Shown: one piece after another, positions 139 through 12,702 of the stretch
Layout of the letters: each line of letters begins with the position of its first letter
How positions within the stretch are numbered: position 1 is the stretch's first letter
Origin: a virus
Direction: 5' to 3' (one strand)
Length of the DNA stretch: 44,632 nucleotides
Virus genome (UHGV): UHGV-0179607
Notes under the pieces: generated by a model
Database searches by the model: none
What the model was told of the DNA's origin: nothing
The model's input: the letters and a program-made list of their open reading frames with translations, nothing else
Translations under genes and position numbers: made by a program

Positions 139-2781
139 ATGGCAGATCAGGCAGCGGGCATCACGCTCAAGGCGGACGTCGCGCAAATTAAAACGGCTAA
201 TACTGTGCTGGACACATTTGCGCAGAAATCCGAGAACACAGAACAGAAAGTCAAAAAATTAAACGACACCCTCGGCAAGTCGAAAAAGGTCACGGGTGAC
301 GCCGCTGGCGGAATGGAAAAGTTAGCGACTGAATCTCAGCGTGCCGCCGACGGCATGACGAAACAGGAGCGACTCGCCAGCCGATTAGGCATGTCGACCA
401 AAAACCTGGGATTCGCATCGCGGAACGCCGCGTTCCAGTTACAGGATATCGCGGTTACGCTTGAGATGGGTATGCCGGTGCACCGCGTCATGCTTCAGCA
501 GCTACCACAGCTAACCGGCGCATTTGGCGGACTGGGTAACACGCTGCGTTATGTTGCAGGCTTCCTCGGCCCAGTAGGGATCGGACTTGCTGCCGTAACG
601 GCGACGTTAGGCGTGGGCGTGGCAATTACGTCACGGGCAGAGAACCAGGTAGCCGCGCTTAATAAGACGCTGGCGCTGTCCGGTAATATCTCCGGCCTCA
701 CAGCTAACCAGATCCTGGTGCTGTCCGAGAACGCCGAGCGCATGGGCGGGTCTTTTCGCAAGACGCGTGACACAATCCAGGCGCTGGCGGCGGCGGGTGT
801 GAAAGCGGGTGGTGACTTCGGCGCACTGGCGAAGGTAGTGAATGACTTCGCGAAGGTGTCCAGCCAGCCGATCGAGGATGTGGTAGCGGCGGTGGCGAAG
901 CTGTCAACCGACCCCGTTGGCGGACTGCGTGCGCTGGCGGATAAATATCACGTCGTAAACGAAGCGCAGATCCAGCAGGTACAGTCGCTCGTTGATGCGG
1001 GTCGTGAGACAGACGCAGTTGCGTTGGCTAACAAAACAGCCGCTGCGTCGTTCACCAGCATGACCAATGAGATCAAGGCGAACATGGGTACGCTTGAGCG
1101 ATCTATGAACGTCGTCACATCGGCAGCCAAATCAATGTGGGATGCCATCCTGGATGTGGGCCGCGCGCAGTCCTCCAATGAATCCGAGATGAAAGCGCGC
1201 GAATCACTGCAGCGGCTGACCACGGCTTACTATGCCGAGATGAAAGCGGTAAACGCTGCCGGTGGGGTAATGACTGAAGCGCAGAAAGCACGTATTAACA
1301 TGCTTTACAGCGAACTGGTCGCCCAGGAAAAAGTGGTGGCGTCGCTCACCCTGCGTAACCGTGCTGAGCGAGACAACGCCCGCGCCGCAGACGAATCCGC
1401 AAAGGCGAACGAGGAGGCCAACCGCACTGCCCGTGACCGCGCCGCGTTCGAGAAGGAATACGCCACCAACGCTAAGAAGCGCGCCGACGAGATCGCCCGC
1501 CTCAATTTGCTGAATAAGCGCGGCGTTATTGATGAGAAAGAACTTGCCGAGGCGGTGAAGCAGGTAAACGAGCGGTACAAAGACCCCGCCCCGAAGAAGG
1601 CTGCGGCTGTTCGCGTGGATGCCGGTATGAAAATGCTGGAAGTCGCACGGAGCGAACTGGCCCAGCTTCGAGAATCCGGCAAGCAGATCGAAGCCAACGC
1701 ATCTACGCAGACCCGCACGCAACGCGCTCAAGCGGCCTTAAACAAGCTGATTGCCGACAACGAACAGTTAATCGCGGCGAGCAAAGAAAGGGCGCTGACG
1801 GCGGCAGAGAAGCAGCAATTAGTCGAGTTCGGGCGCGTGAAGGAAGTGCGCGAGCAGATCGTCGAAGAAGCCAAATTGCTGGATGCGAAAGAGCAGCAGG
1901 TTAAGGCGCACGCGCAGATCGATGCCTTCGTTAAGAACCAGAACGCCGAACTAAAAGCCACCGCCGCGGGGTATGCGCTTTCCACTCGCGAAGCGGCAAA
2001 CCTGCGCGAAGAATTGCAGCTAATTGACCGCCTGAAGCGGGTTGGCGCTAACGATACCGATATTGACAAGGCGGTGTCTAAGCTGCGAGAAGTGCAGGAA
2101 GCACAGACCGGCGCTAACGCCTCGCTATGGGATGGATTCAGTCGCGGGCTTAAGGATAGCGTGGATGAAATGGGTAACGGATATACGCAGATGGCGACGC
2201 TAACGAAATTCACGTTCAGCGCTATGCAAGACACGATGAACGAGTTTTTCGAGACTGGCAAGCTGAACGCAAAGGATATGGTTAAGTCCATCCTTAGCGA
2301 ATTAATCAAGCTGGCTACCTCGCAGGCTTTCAAGTCGATCGTTAGCGCTTTCGGTGGCGACGGCGGCAAAAACGGATTGTTCGGCGCTATCTTCTCTGGC
2401 CTAACTAAGAATGCGGACGGCGGAGCGTACGCAGGAGGCAATCTCGCGGCCTATTCGGGGAAAGTGGTAAGCCAGCCTACCTTTTTCAGTTATGGCGTCC
2501 AGGCGTTCGCTAAGGGTGCAGGATTGATGGGCGAGGCTGGCCCCGAGGCCATCATGCCGCTGAAGCGCGGGCCGGACGGGAAACTGGGCGTTGCCGCGTC
2601 TGGCGCAGGCGGTGGTATGGTCGTGACGACTAACGTTTACACGGGGACCGGTAAGACGGATACCAGTGTTGGCGGGCCGGACCCACGTACCGCGCAGGCG
2701 TTCGGCAAGCAAATCACCGAGGCGGTGAAGGCCGAGATCGTGAAGGCGACGAAACCGGGTGGTGTACTTTACAAACGATGA
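139..2781 (+). CDS. tail tape measure protein
   Basis: 880 aa, largest ORF upstream of the L/K/I/J-like tail genes; long Ala/Gln/Lys-rich helical segments and Gly-rich C-terminal region; RBS GGGGG upstream of ATG at 139. Confidence 0.85.
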   Translation: MADQAAGITLKADVAQIKTANTVLDTFAQKSENTEQKVKKLNDTLGKSKKVTGDAAGGMEKLATESQRAADGMTKQERLASRLGMSTKNLGFASRNAAFQLQDIAVTLEMGMPVHRVMLQQLPQLTGAFGGLGNTLRYVAGFLGPVGIGLAAVTATLGVGVAITSRAENQVAALNKTLALSGNISGLTANQILVLSENAERMGGSFRKTRDTIQALAAAGVKAGGDFGALAKVVNDFAKVSSQPIEDVVAAVAKLSTDPVGGLRALADKYHVVNEAQIQQVQSLVDAGRETDAVALANKTAAASFTSMTNEIKANMGTLERSMNVVTSAAKSMWDAILDVGRAQSSNESEMKARESLQRLTTAYYAEMKAVNAAGGVMTEAQKARINMLYSELVAQEKVVASLTLRNRAERDNARAADESAKANEEANRTARDRAAFEKEYATNAKKRADEIARLNLLNKRGVIDEKELAEAVKQVNERYKDPAPKKAAAVRVDAGMKMLEVARSELAQLRESGKQIEANASTQTRTQRAQAALNKLIADNEQLIAASKERALTAAEKQQLVEFGRVKEVREQIVEEAKLLDAKEQQVKAHAQIDAFVKNQNAELKATAAGYALSTREAANLREELQLIDRLKRVGANDTDIDKAVSKLREVQEAQTGANASLWDGFSRGLKDSVDEMGNGYTQMATLTKFTFSAMQDTMNEFFETGKLNAKDMVKSILSELIKLATSQAFKSIVSAFGGDGGKNGLFGAIFSGLTKNADGGAYAGGNLAAYSGKVVSQPTFFSYGVQAFAKGAGLMGEAGPEAIMPLKRGPDGKLGVAASGAGGGMVVTTNVYTGTGKTDTSVGGPDPRTAQAFGKQITEAVKAEIVKATKPGGVLYKR

Positions 2782-2815
2782 TAAAATGGCCCTCACTACA
2801 ACGTGGGGGCTTTTT

Positions 2816-3415
2816 ATGTCACAAGGTACAATCACACTAACGAAAGGAAGTAAGACCGTTACAGGCGTGGGGACGGCGTTCCTTAGCGAGATCGGGAAGG
2901 TACTCGTATTCGCCCGCATCGACGGCAACGACTACACCGGCAAAATTGCGGCATTCAACTCGAACACGGTCATTACTCTGAAAGATAACTGGGCTGGGCC
3001 AACGAAATCCGGTGCGGCATATGAGCTAATCGAAGCACACGACCCGCGATCAAACGAATGGCCCTATTACTGGCACATGCAATTGCAGGGCGGTGGCGAC
3101 GTGCAGTTAGCTTTCCGGTCCGAGGAATTGCAATTCGGTAATGGCTACGGGCAGAACATCGCGGACGGCCCGAACGCCGAAACTAAACAGTTCCCCGTGC
3201 AATTCATAGGGCTGACTACTGACAAGTGGTGCAACCCTAAACTGGTTTACAACTTCCTTCGCGGGCACTTCGTCAAGCCGTTTGTCGTCACCGCGCCGGA
3301 TGGCGAAACAGGTTTATTCGTGGTCGATCGTTCGAGCTTGTCGTACACGGACAACGGACACCTCACGGCAACCGTATCCGCCACCCTTAAGACTGCTATT
3401 GGATTCGTAAGATGA
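2816..3415 (+). CDS. minor tail protein in the gpM position (hypothetical)
   Basis: ORF directly after the tape measure gene; start moved to ATG 2816 with GGGGGC Shine-Dalgarno. N-terminus (GTITLTKGSKTVTGVGTAF...WAGPT) resembles the N-terminus of the tail fibre at 10291. Confidence 0.5.
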   Translation: MSQGTITLTKGSKTVTGVGTAFLSEIGKVLVFARIDGNDYTGKIAAFNSNTVITLKDNWAGPTKSGAAYELIEAHDPRSNEWPYYWHMQLQGGGDVQLAFRSEELQFGNGYGQNIADGPNAETKQFPVQFIGLTTDKWCNPKLVYNFLRGHFVKPFVVTAPDGETGLFVVDRSSLSYTDNGHLTATVSATLKTAIGFVR

Positions 3416-4200
3416 ATAAACTTTATCGCGAGGCGACGCGCTTTGACCCATCGGGTCGCGTTCGCCTGATTCACATTGACGCGCAGGACGTGGAACCAGG
3501 CGACGGTGCGATCGGCGCGGGCCATCACTATTTCCACTACTGCTTTATTCCGCACACTGCCGAGGATATTGCTGCCGCCGGTGGTGACGAGGATAAGCTA
3601 AAGCCTAAATCAATCTTCTTCGGCGGGCAGGAGTTCGAATTTTGGCCCTTCGATTTATCCGGCCTTAACTTCTCCACATCGACGGCGGCAGAACCGCAAC
3701 TAACAATCGTCGATATTGGCGGCATAATCACCCGGCTGTCGCTGAATCACGACCAGCTACTTGGCGCGAAGGTTGAGATCATTGATACGTTCGCGAAGTT
3801 CCTGGACAACGGGACAGATCCAGACCCGACGCAGAAACGAGTTCAGGAGTATTACATCGACTCGCAGGTCGGGCGCAATCCGGGCAAGCAAATCACCTTC
3901 GCACTATCCTCACCTGCGGATATGGAAGGGCAGGTCGTACCCCGTCGCCAAATCATGAATATGTGCGAATGGGCGCTCAACGGGAAGTACGCCAGCGGGG
4001 ACGGGTGCACCTGGAACCTTGCGAAGCCTGGTATCAAGTATTACGACGAGCGAGGTAATGAAGTCATCGCGATGAACATGGACCGATGCGGCGGCTGTTT
4101 GTCCGACTGTTATCTTCGATTCGGGCAAGGGCTTGCGGACCCTAAAGCGGCGGTGCTGGACTTCGGCGGCTTTCCGGGGTCCAGATTAATTAAGGGGTAG
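3412..4200 (+). CDS. minor tail protein, lambda gpL-like
   Basis: Position between gpM-slot and gpK-like genes; C-terminal Cys cluster (CEW...CTW...CGGCLSDC) as in Fe-S containing gpL-type proteins; start overlaps upstream stop. Confidence 0.65.
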   Translation: MNKLYREATRFDPSGRVRLIHIDAQDVEPGDGAIGAGHHYFHYCFIPHTAEDIAAAGGDEDKLKPKSIFFGGQEFEFWPFDLSGLNFSTSTAAEPQLTIVDIGGIITRLSLNHDQLLGAKVEIIDTFAKFLDNGTDPDPTQKRVQEYYIDSQVGRNPGKQITFALSSPADMEGQVVPRRQIMNMCEWALNGKYASGDGCTWNLAKPGIKYYDERGNEVIAMNMDRCGGCLSDCYLRFGQGLADPKAAVLDFGGFPGSRLIKG

Positions 4201-4202
4201 TT

Positions 4203-4943
4203 ATGTTAACGAAGAAGGTTAAAAGCGATATCGCCGCACACGTCGCGGCCTGTCTGCCGGAAGAAGCCTGTGGCCTGGTTGTCATGGTGGGTCGTAAGCA
4301 AGTGTTCGTCCCATGTCTGAACGTATTCGAAGACCCGACCGGCGTGCGCTCACGCAAAGACGCTTTTACGATTAGTGATATGGCCTGGATGGATGCCGAG
4401 GATATGGGCGACGTCGTGCGCGTAGTCCACTCGCATCCGGGCCAGCGAGAGCTTACCCCCTCACTGGGCGACGTTAACGGATGCAACGGCAGCGGCGTAG
4501 TCTGGACCATCACTAACGAATATGGCGATTTTATCGAGATCGACCCTGAAGACCCTCCGCTGGTGGGGCGTCGATTTGTTCTCGGAATTACGGATTGTTA
4601 CGGCCTCGTCATGGACTGGCACAAAAAGCAGGGCGTAAACCTGCCAGACTTCCGCGTGCCGTATAACTGGTGGGAGACAGGCGAAAATCTGTATATGGAT
4701 AATTGGTACGGTGCTGGCTTCAGGGAATGCGAGGAGAATACGCCGGGGGCAATGGTCATCATGCAGATTAGCGCGCCAGTGCCTAACCACGCCGGGATAT
4801 TCCTTCCAGGCAACCAACTCCTGCACCATATCTACGGCAGCTTGTCGAGCGTCGTACCCTTCCGGGCAGGATTTTTCCGTGACAATGTGGTTAAATGGGT
4901 CCGTCATAAAGACCTACCGGGGAATATCACAGAATGGCAATGA
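4203..4943 (+). CDS. tail assembly protein, lambda gpK-like (MPN/JAB plus NlpC/P60-like)
   Basis: HSHPG motif typical of JAB/MPN metalloprotease domains in the N-terminal half; C-terminal half with a conserved Cys/His; synteny L-K-I-J. Confidence 0.7.
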   Translation: MLTKKVKSDIAAHVAACLPEEACGLVVMVGRKQVFVPCLNVFEDPTGVRSRKDAFTISDMAWMDAEDMGDVVRVVHSHPGQRELTPSLGDVNGCNGSGVVWTITNEYGDFIEIDPEDPPLVGRRFVLGITDCYGLVMDWHKKQGVNLPDFRVPYNWWETGENLYMDNWYGAGFRECEENTPGAMVIMQISAPVPNHAGIFLPGNQLLHHIYGSLSSVVPFRAGFFRDNVVKWVRHKDLPGNITEWQ

Positions 4944-5551
4944 CAACGTTTAAATTGTACGGCGTCTTAGGGCGTCGATTCGGTAAAGTGCATAGGCTGG
5001 ACTGTTTCACACCGGGCGAAGGAATCACCGGCTTGTGTGTGAAGTTGCCGGGGTTACAAGACTTTTTAATGTCCGCCCACCTGGATAACATGATGTTCAA
5101 GGTGCGCAAAGGCGACCACACGATGACCGGCTATGATGAGCTGGGCGAGTTCCACGGCAACCGCGTAGTTACCATCGCGCCGGTTATGACGGGCGCAAAA
5201 AGAGGGTTGGGACAATTGCTGGCGGGTGTCGCGATCGTTGTGGCGTCGTTCTATACGGGCGGACTTGCTACTGCCGCTTTCGGGGCTTCGGCTGCAACCG
5301 CTGCCGCTATCGGAACGGCGACGTTTTCGTTCGGGATGTCGATGGCGCTGGGTGGCGTTATGCAATTGCTGTCGCCACAACCGAAAGGATTGCAGACAAG
5401 GCAGGACGTGGATAACAAAGCGTCGTACGCGTTCGGCGGGCCAGTGAACACGACCGCGCAAGGTACGGCGCTTGGTGTATTATGGGGCGAGCGTGAGATC
5501 GGCGGCGCTATTATTTCAGCCGGAATCGTAACCGAGGATTTGAACGAATGA
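4934..5551 (+). CDS. tail assembly protein, lambda gpI-like
   Basis: 205 aa between the K-like and J-like genes; hydrophobic Gly/Ala-rich C-terminal segment; overlapping start/stop with both neighbours. Confidence 0.6.
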   Translation: MAMTTFKLYGVLGRRFGKVHRLDCFTPGEGITGLCVKLPGLQDFLMSAHLDNMMFKVRKGDHTMTGYDELGEFHGNRVVTIAPVMTGAKRGLGQLLAGVAIVVASFYTGGLATAAFGASAATAAAIGTATFSFGMSMALGGVMQLLSPQPKGLQTRQDVDNKASYAFGGPVNTTAQGTALGVLWGEREIGGAIISAGIVTEDLNE

Positions 5552-8500
5552 CGATTATTTACGACGTCACGGGCCATAAAGGCGGCGGTGGCAAACAGCA
5601 CACCCCACAGGAGACACCCGATAGCCTGCATTCTCTGGCTAAAATCCGCATCTTGCTTGCGCTGGGAGAAGGTGAGTTCGAAGGTATTCCAGACTCTAAC
5701 GAATTACGGCGGCGCGTATATCTGGACGGAACACCGATCCAGAATGCAGACCTGTCTGAAAACTTCCCTGGGGCGCGTGTGGAGTTCCGCCCAGGAACAC
5801 AGCACCAGGATGTGATCCACGGATTTTCAGCGGTGGAAAGTGAGCAATCTGTCGGCGTAAAACTGGAAAACGGCACGCCGTGGGTGCGCCAGATTAACGA
5901 TACCAGTCTGGACGCCGTTCGCATTCGCATCGGCATTCCGGCCCTGTACACTAACGAAGATAACGGCGACCTGGTGGGCGGGCGCATCGACTATAAGATC
6001 GTTGTGTATACGGATAACGCCGATCCGCGTGAGTTCAGATTCGCCGCCGTTGGTAAAACAATGTCGCTATATGAGCGCGACCACCGCATCGAATTACCAC
6101 CGAACGTGAATACCGGCTGGCGAGTGGAGGTGCACCGCATAACGGCAGACTCCACATCGGCGAAAGTGGTTAATGATATCCGGGTGCAATCCATCACTGA
6201 GATTATCGACGCCCGCCTGCGTTACCCGCTAACCGCGCTGTTGTTTGTGGAGTTCGACGCTAAAGCGTTCCAGAACATCCCGCGCGTGTCCATTAAGTGC
6301 AAAGGTCGCAAAGTTCTAATACCGAACAACTACGACCCGATCAATCATACCTATTCCGGGGACTGGGACGGCACGTTTAAACGCGCATGGACGGATAACC
6401 CTGCGTGGCACTGGTACGATATTTGTATTACTGAGCGCTTCGGCCTCGGTCGGCGTATCAAACCGCAAATGCTAAACCGATACGCGCTCTACCAGATTGC
6501 GCAGCGCTGCGATCAGTTGGTCAGCGACGGCAACGGTGGTCGAGAAATCCGCTTTAAGAATGATATGTACATTCAGTCACAGACGGATGCCTGGACCGTG
6601 CTTAAGGATTTAGCCGCCATCTTCGCCGGAATGACCTGGTGGGGTAACCAGATGTTGAATATCGTCAGTGACCAACCGGTCGCAGCAGTGTCGCACACTA
6701 TCACCAACGCCTCGGTAATTGATGGTCGATTCGACTACGCATCTGGCAGCCAGAAAACTCGCTATTCCACATTTGCGGTCGCATACGGCAACCCGAAGAA
6801 CCACTATGAAGATGCCATCGCAACGGGGCAGCGCGTCGAACTGGTACGCCGCCATAAGATTAACCGTCTTGATATTACGGCGATCGGCTGTACGCGTGAA
6901 TCTGAAGCGCAACGCCGCGGGCACTGGGCACTAATTTCCAACCAGCTTGACCAGCAAGTTAGTTTTAAGGTTGGCATGGAGGGGCTATTCTTTATTCCGG
7001 GTAGCGTAGTCGCGATCGCAGATACAAACATTTCTGGCGGCTTCGAGACACGCGGCGGTCGCCTGTTGTCGGACCCTGGCACGCGTACAGTGCTTAACAC
7101 GGACAGCGAAATCACGTTCCGCCCAGGTGATAAATTCCTGGTACGCACCGATAGCGGTAATGTAGAGACTCGCGAGATCGCCAGCGTCAACGGCAACAAG
7201 GTTACGCTAAAAACCGCACTGGACGCCGACCCGATTCCTGATCAGCCGTTTTGCGTCGATGGCAACGATATCCAGTTGCAGAAGTTCCGCATCACCGACC
7301 TGGAATATGACGACTCTACCAGCACTTTTTCAGTGCGCGGGATCGAGTACAACGATAGCAAATATGATGCCGTTGATAATGGCGCTCGCCTTGATCCGGG
7401 CATCTTTACTCAAGTGCCCGACGGTGTAATGAAGGGGCCAGAGTCCGTAACCATCACCCCGTCGCAGATTTCATCGCAAGGCCAGCTAATCACCAACGTG
7501 GATATTGTATTCCCTCCGGTGAAGGACGCCGTGGTGTATGAAATCCAGTGGCGACGTACCAGCTTGCAGAATATGAAAATCCAGTGGGGTAACGACTGGG
7601 TGAACATCCCCCGCACGGCCTCGAACGGCGCGCACATCCCTAACGTGTTCTCCGGTAACTACCAGGCACGCGTCCGCGCAATCGGTATGGGCGAGATTTC
7701 ATCCCCGTGGGTGTCGTCTGCCATCACGCCGATAGAAGGTCGTCTCGGCGGGCTTAACGCGCCTATCATCACCAACGCGATTTCGGGCCTCCACCAAATT
7801 TTGTGGAAGTGGAACCACAACAACGCCGCGACGGATATTTCGTACACCGAGCTTGAAGTGCGCAAGACCGGTGAAACGGAGTGGAAATTTCTTACCAACG
7901 TCCCATATCCGGGGGCGGAGTATGCGCAAACGTCACTGGAGTTCGGGATCTATCAGCAGTTGCGCGCCCGTGTAGCGGATAAAATCGGCAACCTGTCGGA
8001 CTGGTCGGCCCCGTTTGAAGGGCAGGTGAGTGACAAAGTTGACGAATACATGAAGGGGCTTGATGACGAGTTCTTGACTTCCGAGGACGGTAAACGCTTC
8101 CAGGAAGCGATCGACACCATGCCGCAAGGTATCTATGAGTCTATGCTTACGGACGCCCAGCAGCTATTCAATGCCCGCGCCGAGTATAAAGGGATTTATG
8201 CGGAAATCACGGTGGCGTATAACGTGGCGGCGGACGCGCATAAAGCCGTAGCGCAACTGGAAACGTTGATCGGCACGCGCCTTGATGACGCTGAAGCATC
8301 AATCCACACGTTGCAGACTGCGCAAAGCACACATGAACAAGCGTTCGCCCAGTACCAGCAAACTGTTGCCGCTAAGTTTTCGGAACAGGAAGCAGCCATC
8401 CAGCAGGTACAAACGGCAACGGCGGACGTGGCTGGCGCGCTGGCAGAGTATAAGACCCAGGTCGCGGCGCAGTTCGGACAGCAGTCCGCAGCTATCGAGC

Positions 8501-8994
8501 AGAAGATGACGTCTTCGTTTAACCATGCTGGTGGCAGCGCCACGTACAGTCTTAAGGCTGGCGTGACGTATAACGGGACTTACTATGACGCCGGTATGCA
8601 GCTTTCAGTTGTGACGTCTGGCAACGCAGTTAAATCGCGTATTGCGTTCAAAGCCGACCAGTTCTATATCATGCACCCATCTAATGGGTCGCTTTCGTCC
8701 GCGTTTATCGTTGACGGCGGGCAGGTGTACATCGACACGGCACGCATCAAGGATGCGTCAATCAACTTTGCACAGATCACGGACACGCTGCAATCAAATA
8801 ACTTCGCTTCAGGGTCACGCGGCTGGCGTATCCAGAAAGGCGGCGCTGCGGAGTTTAACGAAGTAACGGTCCGCGGCAACCTGTACGCCACATCCGGTAA
8901 CTTCGGATTCTCTGGTGGGACCGTGACGATTGACAAGACAGGAGTAAACGTGCCGTTACCTGGCGGGGGAAGGGTGAAAGTCGGGACGTGGTAA
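5548..8994 (+). CDS. central tail fibre / host specificity protein, lambda gpJ-like
   Basis: 1148 aa, last gene of the L-K-I-J block; followed by a rho-independent terminator. Confidence 0.8.
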   Translation: MTIIYDVTGHKGGGGKQHTPQETPDSLHSLAKIRILLALGEGEFEGIPDSNELRRRVYLDGTPIQNADLSENFPGARVEFRPGTQHQDVIHGFSAVESEQSVGVKLENGTPWVRQINDTSLDAVRIRIGIPALYTNEDNGDLVGGRIDYKIVVYTDNADPREFRFAAVGKTMSLYERDHRIELPPNVNTGWRVEVHRITADSTSAKVVNDIRVQSITEIIDARLRYPLTALLFVEFDAKAFQNIPRVSIKCKGRKVLIPNNYDPINHTYSGDWDGTFKRAWTDNPAWHWYDICITERFGLGRRIKPQMLNRYALYQIAQRCDQLVSDGNGGREIRFKNDMYIQSQTDAWTVLKDLAAIFAGMTWWGNQMLNIVSDQPVAAVSHTITNASVIDGRFDYASGSQKTRYSTFAVAYGNPKNHYEDAIATGQRVELVRRHKINRLDITAIGCTRESEAQRRGHWALISNQLDQQVSFKVGMEGLFFIPGSVVAIADTNISGGFETRGGRLLSDPGTRTVLNTDSEITFRPGDKFLVRTDSGNVETREIASVNGNKVTLKTALDADPIPDQPFCVDGNDIQLQKFRITDLEYDDSTSTFSVRGIEYNDSKYDAVDNGARLDPGIFTQVPDGVMKGPESVTITPSQISSQGQLITNVDIVFPPVKDAVVYEIQWRRTSLQNMKIQWGNDWVNIPRTASNGAHIPNVFSGNYQARVRAIGMGEISSPWVSSAITPIEGRLGGLNAPIITNAISGLHQILWKWNHNNAATDISYTELEVRKTGETEWKFLTNVPYPGAEYAQTSLEFGIYQQLRARVADKIGNLSDWSAPFEGQVSDKVDEYMKGLDDEFLTSEDGKRFQEAIDTMPQGIYESMLTDAQQLFNARAEYKGIYAEITVAYNVAADAHKAVAQLETLIGTRLDDAEASIHTLQTAQSTHEQAFAQYQQTVAAKFSEQEAAIQQVQTATADVAGALAEYKTQVAAQFGQQSAAIEQKMTSSFNHAGGSATYSLKAGVTYNGTYYDAGMQLSVVTSGNAVKSRIAFKADQFYIMHPSNGSLSSAFIVDGGQVYIDTARIKDASINFAQITDTLQSNNFASGSRGWRIQKGGAAEFNEVTVRGNLYATSGNFGFSGGTVTIDKTGVNVPLPGGGRVKVGTW

Positions 8995-9000
8995 ATGCGA

Positions 9001-9024
9001 TGGGGCCAGATGGCCCCATTTTCA
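9001..9024 (+). terminator. rho-independent terminator after the J-like gene
   Basis: Perfect 8-bp stem TGGGGCCA / TGGCCCCA followed by TTTTC; also lies at the 3' end of the convergent minus-strand gene. Confidence 0.6.
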
Positions 9025-9987
9025 ATACATATTCGGGATGACGAGTAGCGGGGTTGGTACTGCAATATTTTTACTTGGCATCTGGAATTGCTGCCGTGAG
9101 TAGTTGCCGATGACGCGGTTTTTAGCGACGCGCACATTATTACCCGCCATGCGTATGCCGTTCATGCGGACGTGGTTATAGCCACCGTTGTTCTGAATCA
9201 GTGCGCCGGTGTATGAAAGCTGGATCAGGCTGTTTCCAATATTCTGGTCGCCCGTTCCGATGTTAATAGTGCGGTCATATACGAACGGCTTGTTCACCGT
9301 CGAGAACGTAACCTGATTCTGGTTATTCGTCATGGTGATTCCGGCCCCCGGCGTGGGTGGTGTGTTGTTGAATATCACCAAATCCATGTCCACCGAAGCC
9401 GCCACATCGTCGATGCCTCCATAGGACGCGTTGCGGACGATAATACTGCCGCCATCGAAGCCTACTGATACGTTGCCATCATCCCATCGGGCGAACGGAA
9501 CACCGCCAACCGGCAAGGCCATACTACCGTTGACGCGCACGCGCTGTGCGTATCGGCAGGTCATTAGCTTAGACACGTTGGATATGGCGGTGAAGTCCGT
9601 CGAGTTAGCCACCAGTAAACCTGCGTTGCGCGAACCAACCGGCAGCACTTCCATTATGACGCCCGCCCATTGTGGTAAACCAGAGTACGCGCCATACGCA
9701 TCCTCCCCGCGCAGGGTGATACCACTATTACCGTTGCGAGTAACCGACGTAACGTAAAACGGGTCGGGAATTACCAGGGTCTGGTCAAACACCTCAATCA
9801 CTTCTACCGGGCGAGTTAGCGCGACGATGACCTGCGACCCATCCGTAAGCGGGGTGTTAATGGTTAGCGTCTTGTTGGACTGTGCCCGCTGGTTAAAGCT
9901 GGTGCAGTATGACGGCGCGCGGAGTCCCGCGGTTATCTCCATGCGCGGCCTTCCGTCGTTATAGTCGATAAGTATTCCAGCGCCCAT
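9022..9987 (-). CDS. putative receptor-binding protein (beta-helix-like, hypothetical)
   Basis: 321 aa from ATG 9987 with GGGAG SD; Asn/Gly/Thr/Ser-rich repetitive beta-strand composition; translationally coupled to the upstream lipoprotein gene; position between the J-like gene and the lateral tail fibre gene as in T5 (pb5/llp) and T1-like RBP loci. Confidence 0.35.
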   Translation of the reverse strand: MGAGILIDYNDGRPRMEITAGLRAPSYCTSFNQRAQSNKTLTINTPLTDGSQVIVALTRPVEVIEVFDQTLVIPDPFYVTSVTRNGNSGITLRGEDAYGAYSGLPQWAGVIMEVLPVGSRNAGLLVANSTDFTAISNVSKLMTCRYAQRVRVNGSMALPVGGVPFARWDDGNVSVGFDGGSIIVRNASYGGIDDVAASVDMDLVIFNNTPPTPGAGITMTNNQNQVTFSTVNKPFVYDRTINIGTGDQNIGNSLIQLSYTGALIQNNGGYNHVRMNGIRMAGNNVRVAKNRVIGNYSRQQFQMPSKNIAVPTPLLVIPNMY

Positions 9988-9989
9988 TA

Positions 9990-10211
9990 TTACCACTCCC
10001 GTGATTTAACTGATACTGTGCCTGAGAAATTGCCGTCGCTATCTGAAGACAGCCCAGTGAATCGCATGTCTACATCTCCTGCCGGTACTTTTTGCCCGTC
10101 AACGTAGCGCAACATGCAGCTACCGTAAGCAACCGTAACGCAATCGCCGTTGTTGCGTTCTACGGCGCAACCGGACAAAAGGACCGCACAAATCATAATT
10201 AAAGTTTTCAT
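9990..10211 (-). CDS. outer-membrane lipoprotein, Cor/Llp-like superinfection exclusion candidate
   Basis: 73 aa from ATG 10211; N-terminus MKTLIMICAVLLSGC has a signal peptide with lipobox LSGC; own promoter-like sequence upstream; adjacent to the receptor-binding locus. Confidence 0.5.
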   Translation of the reverse strand: MKTLIMICAVLLSGCAVERNNGDCVTVAYGSCMLRYVDGQKVPAGDVDMRFTGLSSDSDGNFSGTVSVKSREW

Positions 10212-10242
10212 GGTATCATCCCCTATATTTGGTTGAGTTTTA

Positions 10243-10270
10243 GTATTACACCGCTCAACCAGGATTGCAA
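10243..10270 (-). promoter_or_regulatory. sigma70-like promoter for the lipoprotein/RBP pair
   Basis: On the minus strand TTGCAA - 16 bp - TAATAC, about 35 nt upstream of the lipoprotein start; overlaps a copy of the TTGGTTGCA motif. Confidence 0.35.
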
Positions 10271-10290
10271 CCAATTACGAGGATTTAGCT

Positions 10291-12702
10291 ATGGCAGCGG
10301 GTACGCTATCCGTAACGAACAATAGCAAGGCGGTAGTAGGGGTCGGCACCACGTTTACCGCGTTTAAAGCTGGCGACTTCTTAACGTTGGTGGTAGGGCA
10401 AGTCCCATACACCGTGGCAATCGCGTCCATTGAAAGCGCAACCGCGCTTACGCTGGTGCTGCCGTTCGACGGCCCAACGGCAACCGGCCTTGCGTGGGAC
10501 GGCGTTAAGCGCGATACCATGTCACTGGCAACGATGGGCGTTACCGTACAGGCACAGAAAGCGTTGCGATTGATGATCGCAGATGAAAACAACTGGCGCG
10601 CTATCTTCGGCGAAGAAGAAGAAATCTCGGTCACGCTACCGAACGGTCAAGTGGTGCAGGGTATGTCGTGGGGCTACCTGTCAAAACTGCTTAAAGACGT
10701 AGATCCTGTTGAATTGCAGGCTATCGCGGACCAGACCATCACGGCTAAAAACCAGGCGCAAGGATTCCGTAACGAGGCGGAAGGCTTCAAGAACACCGCG
10801 AATACCGCGAAAGATGCCGCAGTAGCTGCGAAGACAGCGGCGGAGACAGCTAAGTCGCAGGCCGTAACCGCTAAAACGGCAGCCGAGTCCGCAAAGACTG
10901 CCGCGGAGACAGCTAAGTCGCAGGCCGTAACCGCTAAAGACCAGGCCAAAGGATTTCGCGACGAGGCTGAAGGCTTCGCCAACAGCGCGGACGCGTCAAA
11001 GAAAGTGCCGTATGCTGGCGTAACACTACCGGCACCGACTGGAGTAAGGGATATGCTCAAGCGGTTGCGCGATTCGGTTAAGGGCGGCTTCTGGCGCGTC
11101 GATGATATTGCGCAGTTTCCATCTGGCGAGATGACCCCTTTCAGATACGGACCTGGCGTATGTGGCGGCGCGGGGGATACATTCTTTGCAATCAACGTTG
11201 ACTGGCAAACCTCGCGCGTTAAAGTTTTCTCGGGAAACAACAACGCGATCAACGGTGCGTCGGGAAGTGTTAGCGCTATCGAACTGGCTAAGCTGGGGGC
11301 TAACGGGGACGTGGAGATCGGGGACGGCGGGACCGGTGCATCGAACGACCAGGGCGCGAGAAAAAACCTTCAGGCAATGCACGAGCGACAGGCATCGTTG
11401 AATACTGAAGATCTTAACGTCCTTCAGGGTGATAAGGCTGGGTTTTATTATCAGTCCATGTCGGCTAACGCCACCCCAGAGCGTAACTATCCTACTAACA
11501 TGGCGGGTTGTTTACTGGTGCAAAGATCCGGTGCTAACGACCCGAAGAGTTGCATACAGACGTACGCTACCTACGGCGACGGTCGGCGATGGATTCGATG
11601 GTTAGGCAACGCGGCTACGGGTACCTGGTCGCAGTGGTACGAGATGTTTAATGCTGGGTCATCTCCAGAATTTAACGCATACGTAAGAGCTAAAAGCGGC
11701 GATCGAATCGTCGAAATGTTTGTAGGCGGCATTGATGTTGGCGTTCGCAACCGCACGTCGCAGAAAGTGCTACAGCTTCGTGACAACGGCGAACTGGCGT
11801 ATGACAACAAGCTGATCGCATATAACGGACTTGAAGCCAGCGGCACATTTGCTATGCGAATTCCTAGTATGAAGGTAATAACAGCAAATGGTGGCTTCCG
11901 GATCGACGGAACAGTGTCAACAAACAACCAACCACTGCACGTAACAGGGTACAACTCAGCAGGCACGCGTCTTTGGTTTTTAGGGAAGGACACCGGGACG
12001 AGCGCGCTATTCCTGAACGATATAACGTCTTCTAAAGTTGAACTGATCACGGACGGCGTTGTGCTTGGTACGAAGGATTTCGCGGGAAAAGCATACGTTC
12101 AGGCCGCAAGTTTAGAGATCGACCGCCCGAGTGGCAAGTATTTCAAAATGCTGAACGACGGCAACTCGTCACACCCCGCAACCTTCAAATTATGGGGTAA
12201 CGGGTCTGATAGGGCGTCGGTTATTGAGTGGGGTTTTGATAACGGCCCTGGGTGGGTGTTTTACGCGCAATATAATAGCAACGGCACGCGCCAGATGAAC
12301 GTTAACGGAACGGTAAACTGTACGACGGTAAACCAGTCGTCTGACCGCGAGTTGAAGGATAACATCAAGCCGATCGAGAACGCCCGCGCGGGCCTTGCTA
12401 AGATGGGTGGCTATACCTACACCCTGAAGAAAGACGGTATGCCGTACGCCGGGGTGATTGCACAGGAAGTAATGGACGTTGTGCCAGAAGCGGTGAGCAC
12501 GTTTGAGGACTACGAATACCTTGCGGGTCCAACGCAAGACGGCGAGGAACTGGTAGGGCGTCAGCGCTTCTTCCAGGTGGACTACGGCGCTATTGCTGCA
12601 TACGCGGTGCAAGTGTGTAAAGAGCAGGAAGAGGAACTGGTGTCTTTGCGTAGCGAACTGGAGGAATTGAAAGCTGCCGTAGCGGCACTGACTAAAGCAT
12701 AA
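10291..12702 (+). CDS. tail fibre protein with C-terminal intramolecular chaperone (peptidase S74-like) domain
   Basis: 803 aa; C-terminal region SDRELKDNIKPIENARAGLAKMGGYTYTLKKDG...AGVIAQEVMDVVPEAV matches the self-cleaving chaperone domain of endosialidase and T5 L-shaped tail fibre type proteins; internal tandem repeats; strong RBS. Confidence 0.8.
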   Translation: MAAGTLSVTNNSKAVVGVGTTFTAFKAGDFLTLVVGQVPYTVAIASIESATALTLVLPFDGPTATGLAWDGVKRDTMSLATMGVTVQAQKALRLMIADENNWRAIFGEEEEISVTLPNGQVVQGMSWGYLSKLLKDVDPVELQAIADQTITAKNQAQGFRNEAEGFKNTANTAKDAAVAAKTAAETAKSQAVTAKTAAESAKTAAETAKSQAVTAKDQAKGFRDEAEGFANSADASKKVPYAGVTLPAPTGVRDMLKRLRDSVKGGFWRVDDIAQFPSGEMTPFRYGPGVCGGAGDTFFAINVDWQTSRVKVFSGNNNAINGASGSVSAIELAKLGANGDVEIGDGGTGASNDQGARKNLQAMHERQASLNTEDLNVLQGDKAGFYYQSMSANATPERNYPTNMAGCLLVQRSGANDPKSCIQTYATYGDGRRWIRWLGNAATGTWSQWYEMFNAGSSPEFNAYVRAKSGDRIVEMFVGGIDVGVRNRTSQKVLQLRDNGELAYDNKLIAYNGLEASGTFAMRIPSMKVITANGGFRIDGTVSTNNQPLHVTGYNSAGTRLWFLGKDTGTSALFLNDITSSKVELITDGVVLGTKDFAGKAYVQAASLEIDRPSGKYFKMLNDGNSSHPATFKLWGNGSDRASVIEWGFDNGPGWVFYAQYNSNGTRQMNVNGTVNCTTVNQSSDRELKDNIKPIENARAGLAKMGGYTYTLKKDGMPYAGVIAQEVMDVVPEAVSTFEDYEYLAGPTQDGEELVGRQRFFQVDYGAIAAYAVQVCKEQEEELVSLRSELEELKAAVAALTKA
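10840..10938 (+). repeat. 36-bp perfect tandem-type repeat inside the tail fibre gene
   Basis: GCGGAGACAGCTAAGTCGCAGGCCGTAACCGCTAAA occurs at 10840-10875 and 10903-10938, encoding repeated AETAKSQAVTAK units. Confidence 0.7.

Follow-up and report, generated by a model that had tools for sequence, protein, structure and literature searches.

A fibre-root-type module on the distal tail protein and the lateral tail fibre of a Dhillonvirus-like genome

Tail genes and layout of the 199-residue protein

The virus genome UHGV-0179607, a stretch of 44,632 nucleotides referred to below as the window, carries a tail module in which the gene after the tape measure protein (TMP) gene encodes a 199-residue protein and a gene further downstream encodes an 803-residue protein (Table 1). 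A sequence-only reading had taken the first for a tail protein and the second for a lateral tail fibre, and proposed that they share an N-terminal domain of about 70 residues, which would be either a common docking domain on the baseplate or the trace of an ancestral duplication. The window region matched 158 phage records at 80-98% identity, nearly all of them E. coli Dhillonvirus (HK578/SSL-2009a group). The gene order TMP-gpM-gpL-gpK-gpI-gpJ places the 199-residue protein where a distal tail protein (Dit) of the lambda gpM type is expected, and positions 2816-3040, which translate as MSQGTITLTKGSKTVTGVGTAFLSE...AYELIEAH, are indeed the start of its open reading frame. Both gene assignments held, since matches to Pfam PF05939 and T1 gp37 identify the first product as a gpM-type distal tail protein (gpM) and BASEL orthologues of the second (10291-12702) carry the annotation 'lateral tail fiber protein'.

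A Shine-Dalgarno-like GGGGG run lies about 7 nt upstream of the ATG at 2816. Database versions of 218 and 212 residues (P0001, P0002) follow from an in-frame GTG at 2759 (window 2759-2815); the ATG at 2816 is preceded by a better ribosome-binding site and agrees with the 199-residue chain in PDB entry 23gd.

Residues 86-192 of gpM matched Phage_min_tail (PF05939) with 44.7 bits against a cut-off of 39, and the core matched the T1 distal tail protein gp37 (9l9p_H) by sequence with E = 1e-11. The same T1 chain was the top Foldseek match (E = 1.2e-4) of a full-length AlphaFold2 (AF2) model, whose poor confidence (pLDDT, predicted local distance difference test, of 57.4) makes its matches informative for the core only. 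The closest gpM homologues outside Dhillonvirus are 122-125 residues long and wholly lack the N-terminal part; those numbered P0005-P0010 begin where gpM residue ~80 aligns, and lambda gpM aligns in the same manner. Because the Phage_min_tail and T1 matches cover the core and the shorter homologues start at about residue 80, the 199-residue protein reads as a standard gpM-type Dit core preceded by an N-terminal add-on (residues 1-73) and an 8-residue linker. The linker was modelled with pLDDT below 50, and the add-on as six strands with a modest pLDDT of 77.6.

PDB 23gd, which is newer than the fold libraries used for the structure search, contains a 199-residue 'Distal tail protein gp20' (23gd_B, E = 1e-130, ~95% identical to the window gpM) together with 'Hub protein gp21' (gpL) and 'J-like tail tip protein gp24' (gpJ). 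This deposited structure probably already shows the add-on domain. Our literature search found no published description of the Dhillonvirus Dit add-on and no paper for 23gd; two candidates for such a paper were set aside because the Avs-1 'distal tail protein gp20' and the Sf11 Dit are different proteins, which carry helical adaptors. In phage WF5505 (L008, ~10055-10075) residues 19-24 of gpM read GAGRRSWSEIG in place of GAGTAFLSEIG in the otherwise invariant G-T-x-F motif, which looks like a compensated frameshift pair or a sequencing error within the add-on.

The module shared by gpM and the fibre

BLASTP of gpM against the fibre gave a single significant high-scoring segment pair, joining residues 1-73 of each with 27 of 74 positions identical (36%), 57% positives, one gap and E = 6e-8. 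The Smith-Waterman score of the two N-termini was 104, against 26.0 +/- 4.7 when the N-terminal 80 residues were shuffled (z = 16.4; 0/5000 reached 104) and 38.0 +/- 5.5 for full-length shuffles (z = 11.9; 0/1000; Gumbel p ~1e-7). The PHROG profiles agreed in both directions. The gpM segment matched the N-termini of several tail-fibre families (among them phrog_17834, 3e-18, and phrog_1980, 1e-15), and the fibre segment, besides its own family phrog_1980 (8e-56), matched the gpM family phrog_9922 (4e-7). A six-frame scan of the window with a hidden Markov model (HMM) of the module returned exactly two copies, in gpM (4e-39) and in the fibre (3e-35). Both segments abound in G, T, V and A, and a likeness of two Gly/Thr/Val-rich beta segments by chance or composition might be suspected, but the shuffles preserved composition, the BLASTP value was compositionally adjusted, the profile matches were reciprocal and a joint profile retrieved a solved domain, leaving this explanation a negligible chance. 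The proposed common N-terminal module thus stood up to the significance test and could be delimited to residues 1-73. By sequence comparison, the gpM add-on and the fibre N-terminus are copies of one widespread module of about 70 residues, predicted to be a beta-barrel.

The solved domain is the attachment domain of the F2-pyocin side fibre (25ve_A residues 5-73), which the profile of both window copies matched in the PDB with E = 2.4e-7; as single sequences, gpM matched it with 1.4e-4 and the fibre with 0.09. Cryo-EM of F-type pyocins showed that three side fibres, each a trimer, are held on the central-fibre coiled coil by residues 2-76 (PMC13455828, PMC12874032, 10.64898/2026.02.24.707460). 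Of each side-fibre trimer, two protomers engage and together make up a ring of six, with the third at the periphery (PMC13455828, 10.64898/2026.02.24.707460). Arg30, Lys80 and Arg87 of the F7 pyocin lie opposite an acidic kink in the central fibre (PMC13455828, PMC12874032, 10.64898/2026.02.24.707460).

The likeness to this domain (PyoF13 / PA0643 / PA0646; PDB 25ve, 25vj) holds by sequence for both window copies, and the fibre copy shares its context as well, forming the first ~70 residues of a trimeric side fibre that continues into a helical stem (residues 74-140). In pyocins the domain occurs on fibres only and docks on a kinked central-fibre coiled coil, whereas the window has a second copy on its Dit. 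The gpM copy departs from the root family in two respects. It has no stem, since the 8-residue linker leads directly into a core of putative tail-tube fold, and it lacks the basic contact residue, the position aligned with pyocin Arg30 being Glu25 in gpM and Lys26 in the window fibre (K, N or T among Dhillonviruses). By homology, the fibre copy is well supported as the anchor of the fibre on the virion, where two of its three protomers would engage in a six-membered ring as in pyocins. In this respect the idea of a shared baseplate docking domain was upheld. It does not fit the gpM copy, because the gpM core would itself be an integral ring subunit and the add-on is missing from the 122-125 residue relatives and from near-isogenic phages.

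The module is not confined to these phages. A profile of six copies, searched against 1.84 billion representative proteins, gave 5,689 representative clusters at E<=1e-3, and in most of them the domain occupies residues 1-73 of fibre-like proteins of 250-800 residues. Its matches in BFVD were likewise fibres (Dhillonvirus, Rtp, Jk06, phiKP26 and others), with one 'minor tail protein' only, and no Pfam or NCBIfam model covering the module was found. A minority of the matches are giant proteins of 1000-2900 residues with 4-22 tandem copies (P0016-P0026, P0082), one of which (P0016) combines 13 copies with PKD domains. Because of these tandem arrays, the module is also a repeat unit and not solely a fibre root. 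An exhaustive profile search was needed to see this breadth, given that a word-index search returned no match for the 81-residue gpM domain and 5 close matches for the fibre N-terminus. A tblastn search of a phage collection with the gpM N-domain returned 158 Dhillonvirus gpM genes only, being too insensitive to reach fibres.

Within the family, the gpM add-on has 44-47% identity with ES18/HK225-type fibre roots but only 36% with the root of its own genome's fibre, and no DNA-level similarity was found between the two window segments. For these reasons we interpret the add-on as an old domain capture or shuffling event and not as a duplication within the window genome. Recent intragenomic duplication, or gene conversion between the two genes, might be suggested by two copies lying 7.5 kb apart on the same strand of one genome, but besides the low identity and the closer ES18/HK225-type relatives, each copy is separately conserved across the genus, and we consider this origin highly improbable. 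The ancestral duplication proposed earlier thus survives in the loose sense of common ancestry within a widespread module and not as an event in this genome.

The exchangeable cassette and the distribution of the add-on

Two metagenomic contigs, L002 and L003, are Dhillonviruses that resemble the window closely in TMP (98% identity), gpK (98%), gpI (99%) and gpJ (97%). Their fibre roots (residues 1-73) are 94-96% identical to that of the window (L002 96%; its fibre is 94% identical over residues 1-50 and 100% over residues 51-100). Their gpM has 123 residues, no add-on and a core 67% identical to that of the window, and their gpL has a diverged N-terminus and a 150-residue insertion. In blastn comparisons with both contigs, identity was 93-96% up to the gpM start codon (2818), no match was found at 2819-3130, 3131-3569 matched at 70%, and identity returned to ~89% from 3595. 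Because identity collapses between near-identical flanks, with sharp breakpoints at 2818/2819 and 3594/3595, window positions 2819-3594 represent an exchangeable cassette that includes the N-terminal part of gpL. That part of gpL corresponds to the T1 gpL region that reaches up to touch Dit (PMC11945409). The alternative allele of the cassette combines a plain gpM of 123-125 residues with a 415-residue gpL (L002 10004-11003; L003; L016 10368-11615), in which ~150 residues are inserted after residue ~55. The insertion matched nothing in Pfam or PHROG; its one match was weak, to R4C 'Megatron' (8gtc_M, E = 1.7e-4).

About 50 loci from isolates, IMG/VR and metagenomes were compared, and three states were found. 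The large majority, including all 158 isolates, carry the gpM add-on with a short gpL; five loci (L002, L003, L016, L017, L021) have a plain gpM with the gpL insertion; and three (L004, L018, L020) have neither decoration. The add-on and the gpL insertion never occurred together. Every locus that reaches the fibre gene has the root domain on its fibre, including those without the gpM add-on (L002-L004, L016, L018, L021).

The two copies did not change in step, and no co-variation between them was found in the Dhillonvirus comparison. In Pandora71 the gpM add-on is 69% identical to that of the window and the fibre root 100%; in bov11C2 the values are 69% and 94%. An apparent link between fibre Lys26 and the presence of the add-on (11/11 versus 0/5) was dropped, as seven further phages with the add-on have Thr or Asn at this position. 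Since that link vanished in the larger sample, the apparent charge swap between E25/K28 of gpM and K26/D29 of the fibre is not interpretable.

The ratio of non-synonymous to synonymous substitution (dN/dS) was estimated over 11 Dhillonvirus genomes, with dS similar for all segments (~0.6-0.9). It was 0.21 for the gpM add-on, 0.035 for the gpM core, 0.11 for the fibre root and 0.05 for the fibre stem, so that constraint on the add-on is ~6x more relaxed than on the core and ~2x more than on the fibre root. The add-on is under purifying selection, which indicates that it is functional, and it behaves like an exposed accessory surface.

A published comparison described the 'far 5' end' of Dhillonvirus fibre loci, which corresponds to the root, as conserved and the remainder of the gene as variable (PMC8594841). 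Phage Maverick (L013 9757-10272, P0011) has an in-frame reduction of its fibre to the root, the stem and the last ~20 C-terminal coiled-coil residues, leaving a stub of 162-171 residues that retains the stem, beside an intact gpM add-on. The stub is either a natural fibreless variant that keeps its anchor or a laboratory deletion. Downstream of the stem, at ~10720-10990 (residues ~145-235), the window fibre has an Ala/Lys/Thr/Glu-rich repeat (AKTAAETAKSQAVTAK and similar, with FRNEAEGFKN repeated as FRDEAEGFAN) that is typical of a coiled-coil shaft, and divergence among Dhillonvirus fibres begins there.

Fibre docking and the role of the gpM copy

The swap between the cassette alleles alters the add-on, a third of the gpM core and the gpL N-terminus and leaves the fibre root and stem unchanged, so the docking partner of the root is most likely encoded outside the cassette. 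By analogy with F-pyocins, the gpJ shaft is the leading candidate. The tips are related, as gpJ matched the F2-pyocin central fibre protein (CFP; 25vf_A) with E = 1e-226, T1 gp33 with 1e-190 and lambda gpJ with 8e-89, and gpL matched the pyocin hub with 1e-29. The C-terminal 210 residues of gpJ align to CFP 977-1186. The helical shaft of gpJ comprises ~150 residues (~830-990, window ~8035-8517) and is ~100 residues shorter than that of the pyocin. At residues ~838-860 a stretch of acidic residues leads up to a DTMPQG helix breaker, which may or may not be equivalent to the pyocin docking kink.

We give an even chance to the reading that the gpM add-on has been co-opted as a dispensable decoration, present six-fold on the outside of the distal tail ring, and is not a fibre socket, because phages that are otherwise 97-99% identical lack it and keep the same fibre root. 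A root-type module fused through the 8-residue linker to the N-terminus of the ring-forming gpM core would set six modules around the outer edge of the ring, where tube and tip join. K2 and W6 of lambda gpM are exposed at this place and touch the collar of the Stf fibre in Ur-lambda (PMC12617516). The add-on travels on the cassette of gpM and gpL N-terminus and is replaced in some phages by the unrelated gpL insertion; the fibre root would most likely dock elsewhere, with the gpJ shaft as the leading candidate. As for what six such knobs might do, we favour weak multivalent contact with the surface-glycan layer of the host, slightly above secondary bracing of the fibres, because of the analogy with decorated Dits, the faster evolution of the add-on and the fact that it never occurs with the unrelated gpL insertion, which occupies the same site.

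Several points weigh against this interpretation. The only experimentally known activity of the family is fibre attachment and ring formation, which favours a fibre-related role for the gpM copy as well and makes glycan binding by this fold conjectural. The gpL insertion of phages without the add-on could be a substitute adaptor rather than an unrelated decoration. The pyocin docking segment (CFP ~950-961) falls in the ~100-residue stretch that has no alignable counterpart in gpJ, so the root may instead dock at the tube-tip junction, as in Ur-lambda. An assembled fibre-root structure exists for no Dhillonvirus or T1-like phage, and sequence searches of the PDB found no fibre chain. The AF2 models, modest for the add-on and poor for the full-length protein, are of monomers only.

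A first alternative, which we judge unlikely, is that the fibres are anchored elsewhere and the six gpM knobs touch their roots, stems or shafts in a secondary and dispensable way, fixing the number or orientation of the fibres or stowing them along the tail. Protein-protein docking in fibre assemblies is the known role of the family (PMC13455828, PMC12874032, 10.64898/2026.02.24.707460), and purifying selection combined with natural dispensability fits an accessory contact. However, roots on the gpJ shaft would lie far from the gpM ring, to judge from the geometry of the pyocin and lambda structures; the add-on does not co-vary with the fibre root or stem; and the alternative cassette places an unrelated fold at the same site, which argues that the function does not rely on resemblance to the root.

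A second alternative, to which we attach a similarly low probability, is a hybrid collar as the primary dock, in which six gpM-fused roots co-assemble with fibre roots in one ring at the tube-tip junction through the lateral contacts that fibre roots make among themselves. The tail would then supply half of the socket by mimicking the root. Six gpM copies and two from each of three fibre trimers, for example, would make 12, as in the collars of Ur-lambda and T5. The homology of the gpM and fibre domains is in its favour, as are the six-membered ring of F2-pyocin roots with two protomers per trimer (PMC13455828; 10.64898/2026.02.24.707460), the 12-membered collars of Ur-lambda and T5/DT57C at this level (PMC12617516, PMC10713586), the start of the add-on 8 residues from the point equivalent to the lambda gpM residues K2 and W6 that touch the collar (PMC12617516), and the retention of the add-on in 158/158 Dhillonvirus isolate records. 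Against it, L002 and L003 have no add-on and a gpM core that is 33% diverged, yet their fibre roots are 94-96% identical to that of the window, and the more distant L004 and L018, with neither decoration, still carry a rooted fibre. Neither the add-on and root nor, in the larger sample, Lys26 gave a co-varying signal, and PDB 23gd models gp20 but not the fibre. The fullest version of this idea, in which six 'dummy fibre roots' of gpM interleave with fibre roots, two per trimer, in a 12-membered collar and the gpL insertion is a non-homologous substitute, is a shade less probable still. If true, such half-socket mimicry would be a mode of side-fibre attachment unseen in lambda, T5, Sf11 and F-pyocins.

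The decoration that we favour can be set beside several known tails. In Ur-lambda, the Stf collar (residues 1-94, 12 copies, at the gpV/gpM junction) is attached level with the distal tail protein, in contact with the N-terminus of gpM (PMC12617516), the very site where the Dhillonvirus add-on emerges. Stf differs in its Ig-like fold and shows no sequence similarity that could be detected, lambda gpM lacks an add-on, and the collar consists of fibre subunits only; sequence and profile searches of the PDB with the window copies retrieved no Stf chain. In T5 and DT57C, p132/LtfC is likewise a non-fibre polypeptide that provides beta-rich domains at the periphery of the tail tip (PMC10713586), but it is a separate 140-residue protein forming a 12-mer that holds the N-terminal strands of the fibre by beta-augmentation. 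Fibre attachment depends on it, whereas natural phages can dispense with the gpM add-on. We likened gpM to decorated Dits, such as T5 pb9 with its OB-fold domain, the phage Chi Dit, the helical adaptor of Sf11/Avs-1 and the 'evolved' Dits of phages of Gram-positive hosts. In these the decoration is either inserted or placed at the C-terminus, and no homology to a fibre root of the same phage is reported, while that of Dhillonvirus gpM is N-terminal and shares ancestry with fibre roots.

The lateral fibre of the window ends in a Peptidase_S74 chaperone (residues 684-735, window 12340-12495; 50.7 bits against a Pfam cut-off of 22), and in Dhillonvirus O-antigen binding by the lateral fibres is thought to precede porin binding by gpJ (PMC8594841, PMC11990801). 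Of the two minus-strand genes between gpJ and the fibre, 9022-9996 is of the DUF6453 type and 9990-10274 of a small lipoprotein type, both assigned from their synteny with L002 and Pandora71. In Welsh, SSL-2009a and the BASEL phages, two plus-strand genes and a Cor-like exclusion gene stand there instead; this gap is an allelic receptor-binding/exclusion locus known for Dhillonvirus. Tail modules 95-97% identical to that of the window are deposited under odd host names (Campylobacter phage A144, an Acinetobacter phage and Sodalis phage SO-1), which may be contaminants or host misassignments.

Table 1. Features of the tail module in the window
Feature	Coordinates	Strand	Basis or remark
Tape measure protein (TMP)	139-2781	+	stop at 2781
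gpM-type distal tail protein, 199 aa	2816-3415	+	ATG 2816, stop 3415
Fibre-root-type add-on domain, gpM residues 1-73, small beta-barrel (predicted)	2816-3034	+	BLASTP, shuffles, HMM, profile, AF2
Exchangeable cassette, all gpM and first ~60 gpL codons	2819-3594	+	blastn against L002/L003
Linker, gpM residues 74-81, AHDPRSNE	3035-3058	+	starts of homologues without the add-on
gpM/distal tail protein core, residues 82-199, stop included	3059-3415	+	Pfam, PDB, Foldseek
gpL-type hub protein, 262 aa, gpM partner	3412-4200	+	Pfam PF05100 2.7e-36; PDB 23gd_C 'Hub protein gp21' E 5e-185
gpK	4203-4943		
gpI	4934-5551		
gpJ-type central fibre, 1148 aa	5548-8994	+	Pfam FNIII-A_GpJ, Phage-tail_3, Phage_Tail_Tip
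Two genes between gpJ and fibre	9022-9996, 9990-10274	-	
Lateral tail fibre, 803 aa	10291-12702	+	PHROG tail-fibre families; orthologue annotation
Fibre root (putative anchor) domain, residues 1-73	10291-10509	+	HMM 3e-35; phrog_1980 8e-56
Conserved stem, fibre residues 74-140	10510-10710	+	85-100% identical across Dhillonviruses

How siphophages fasten their lateral fibres is known for few systems (lambda, T5/DT57C, Sf11/Avs-1 and F-pyocins) and matters for the engineering of host range. The present comparison assigns the conserved far N-terminus of fibres in Dhillonvirus, T1-like and ES18/HK225-type phages to one module, that of the solved attachment domain of pyocins, and adds a distal tail protein that has captured this fibre-root module. 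Nature has provided the knock-out, in that a swap of a 0.8-kb cassette removes the module and leaves the fibre root unchanged.

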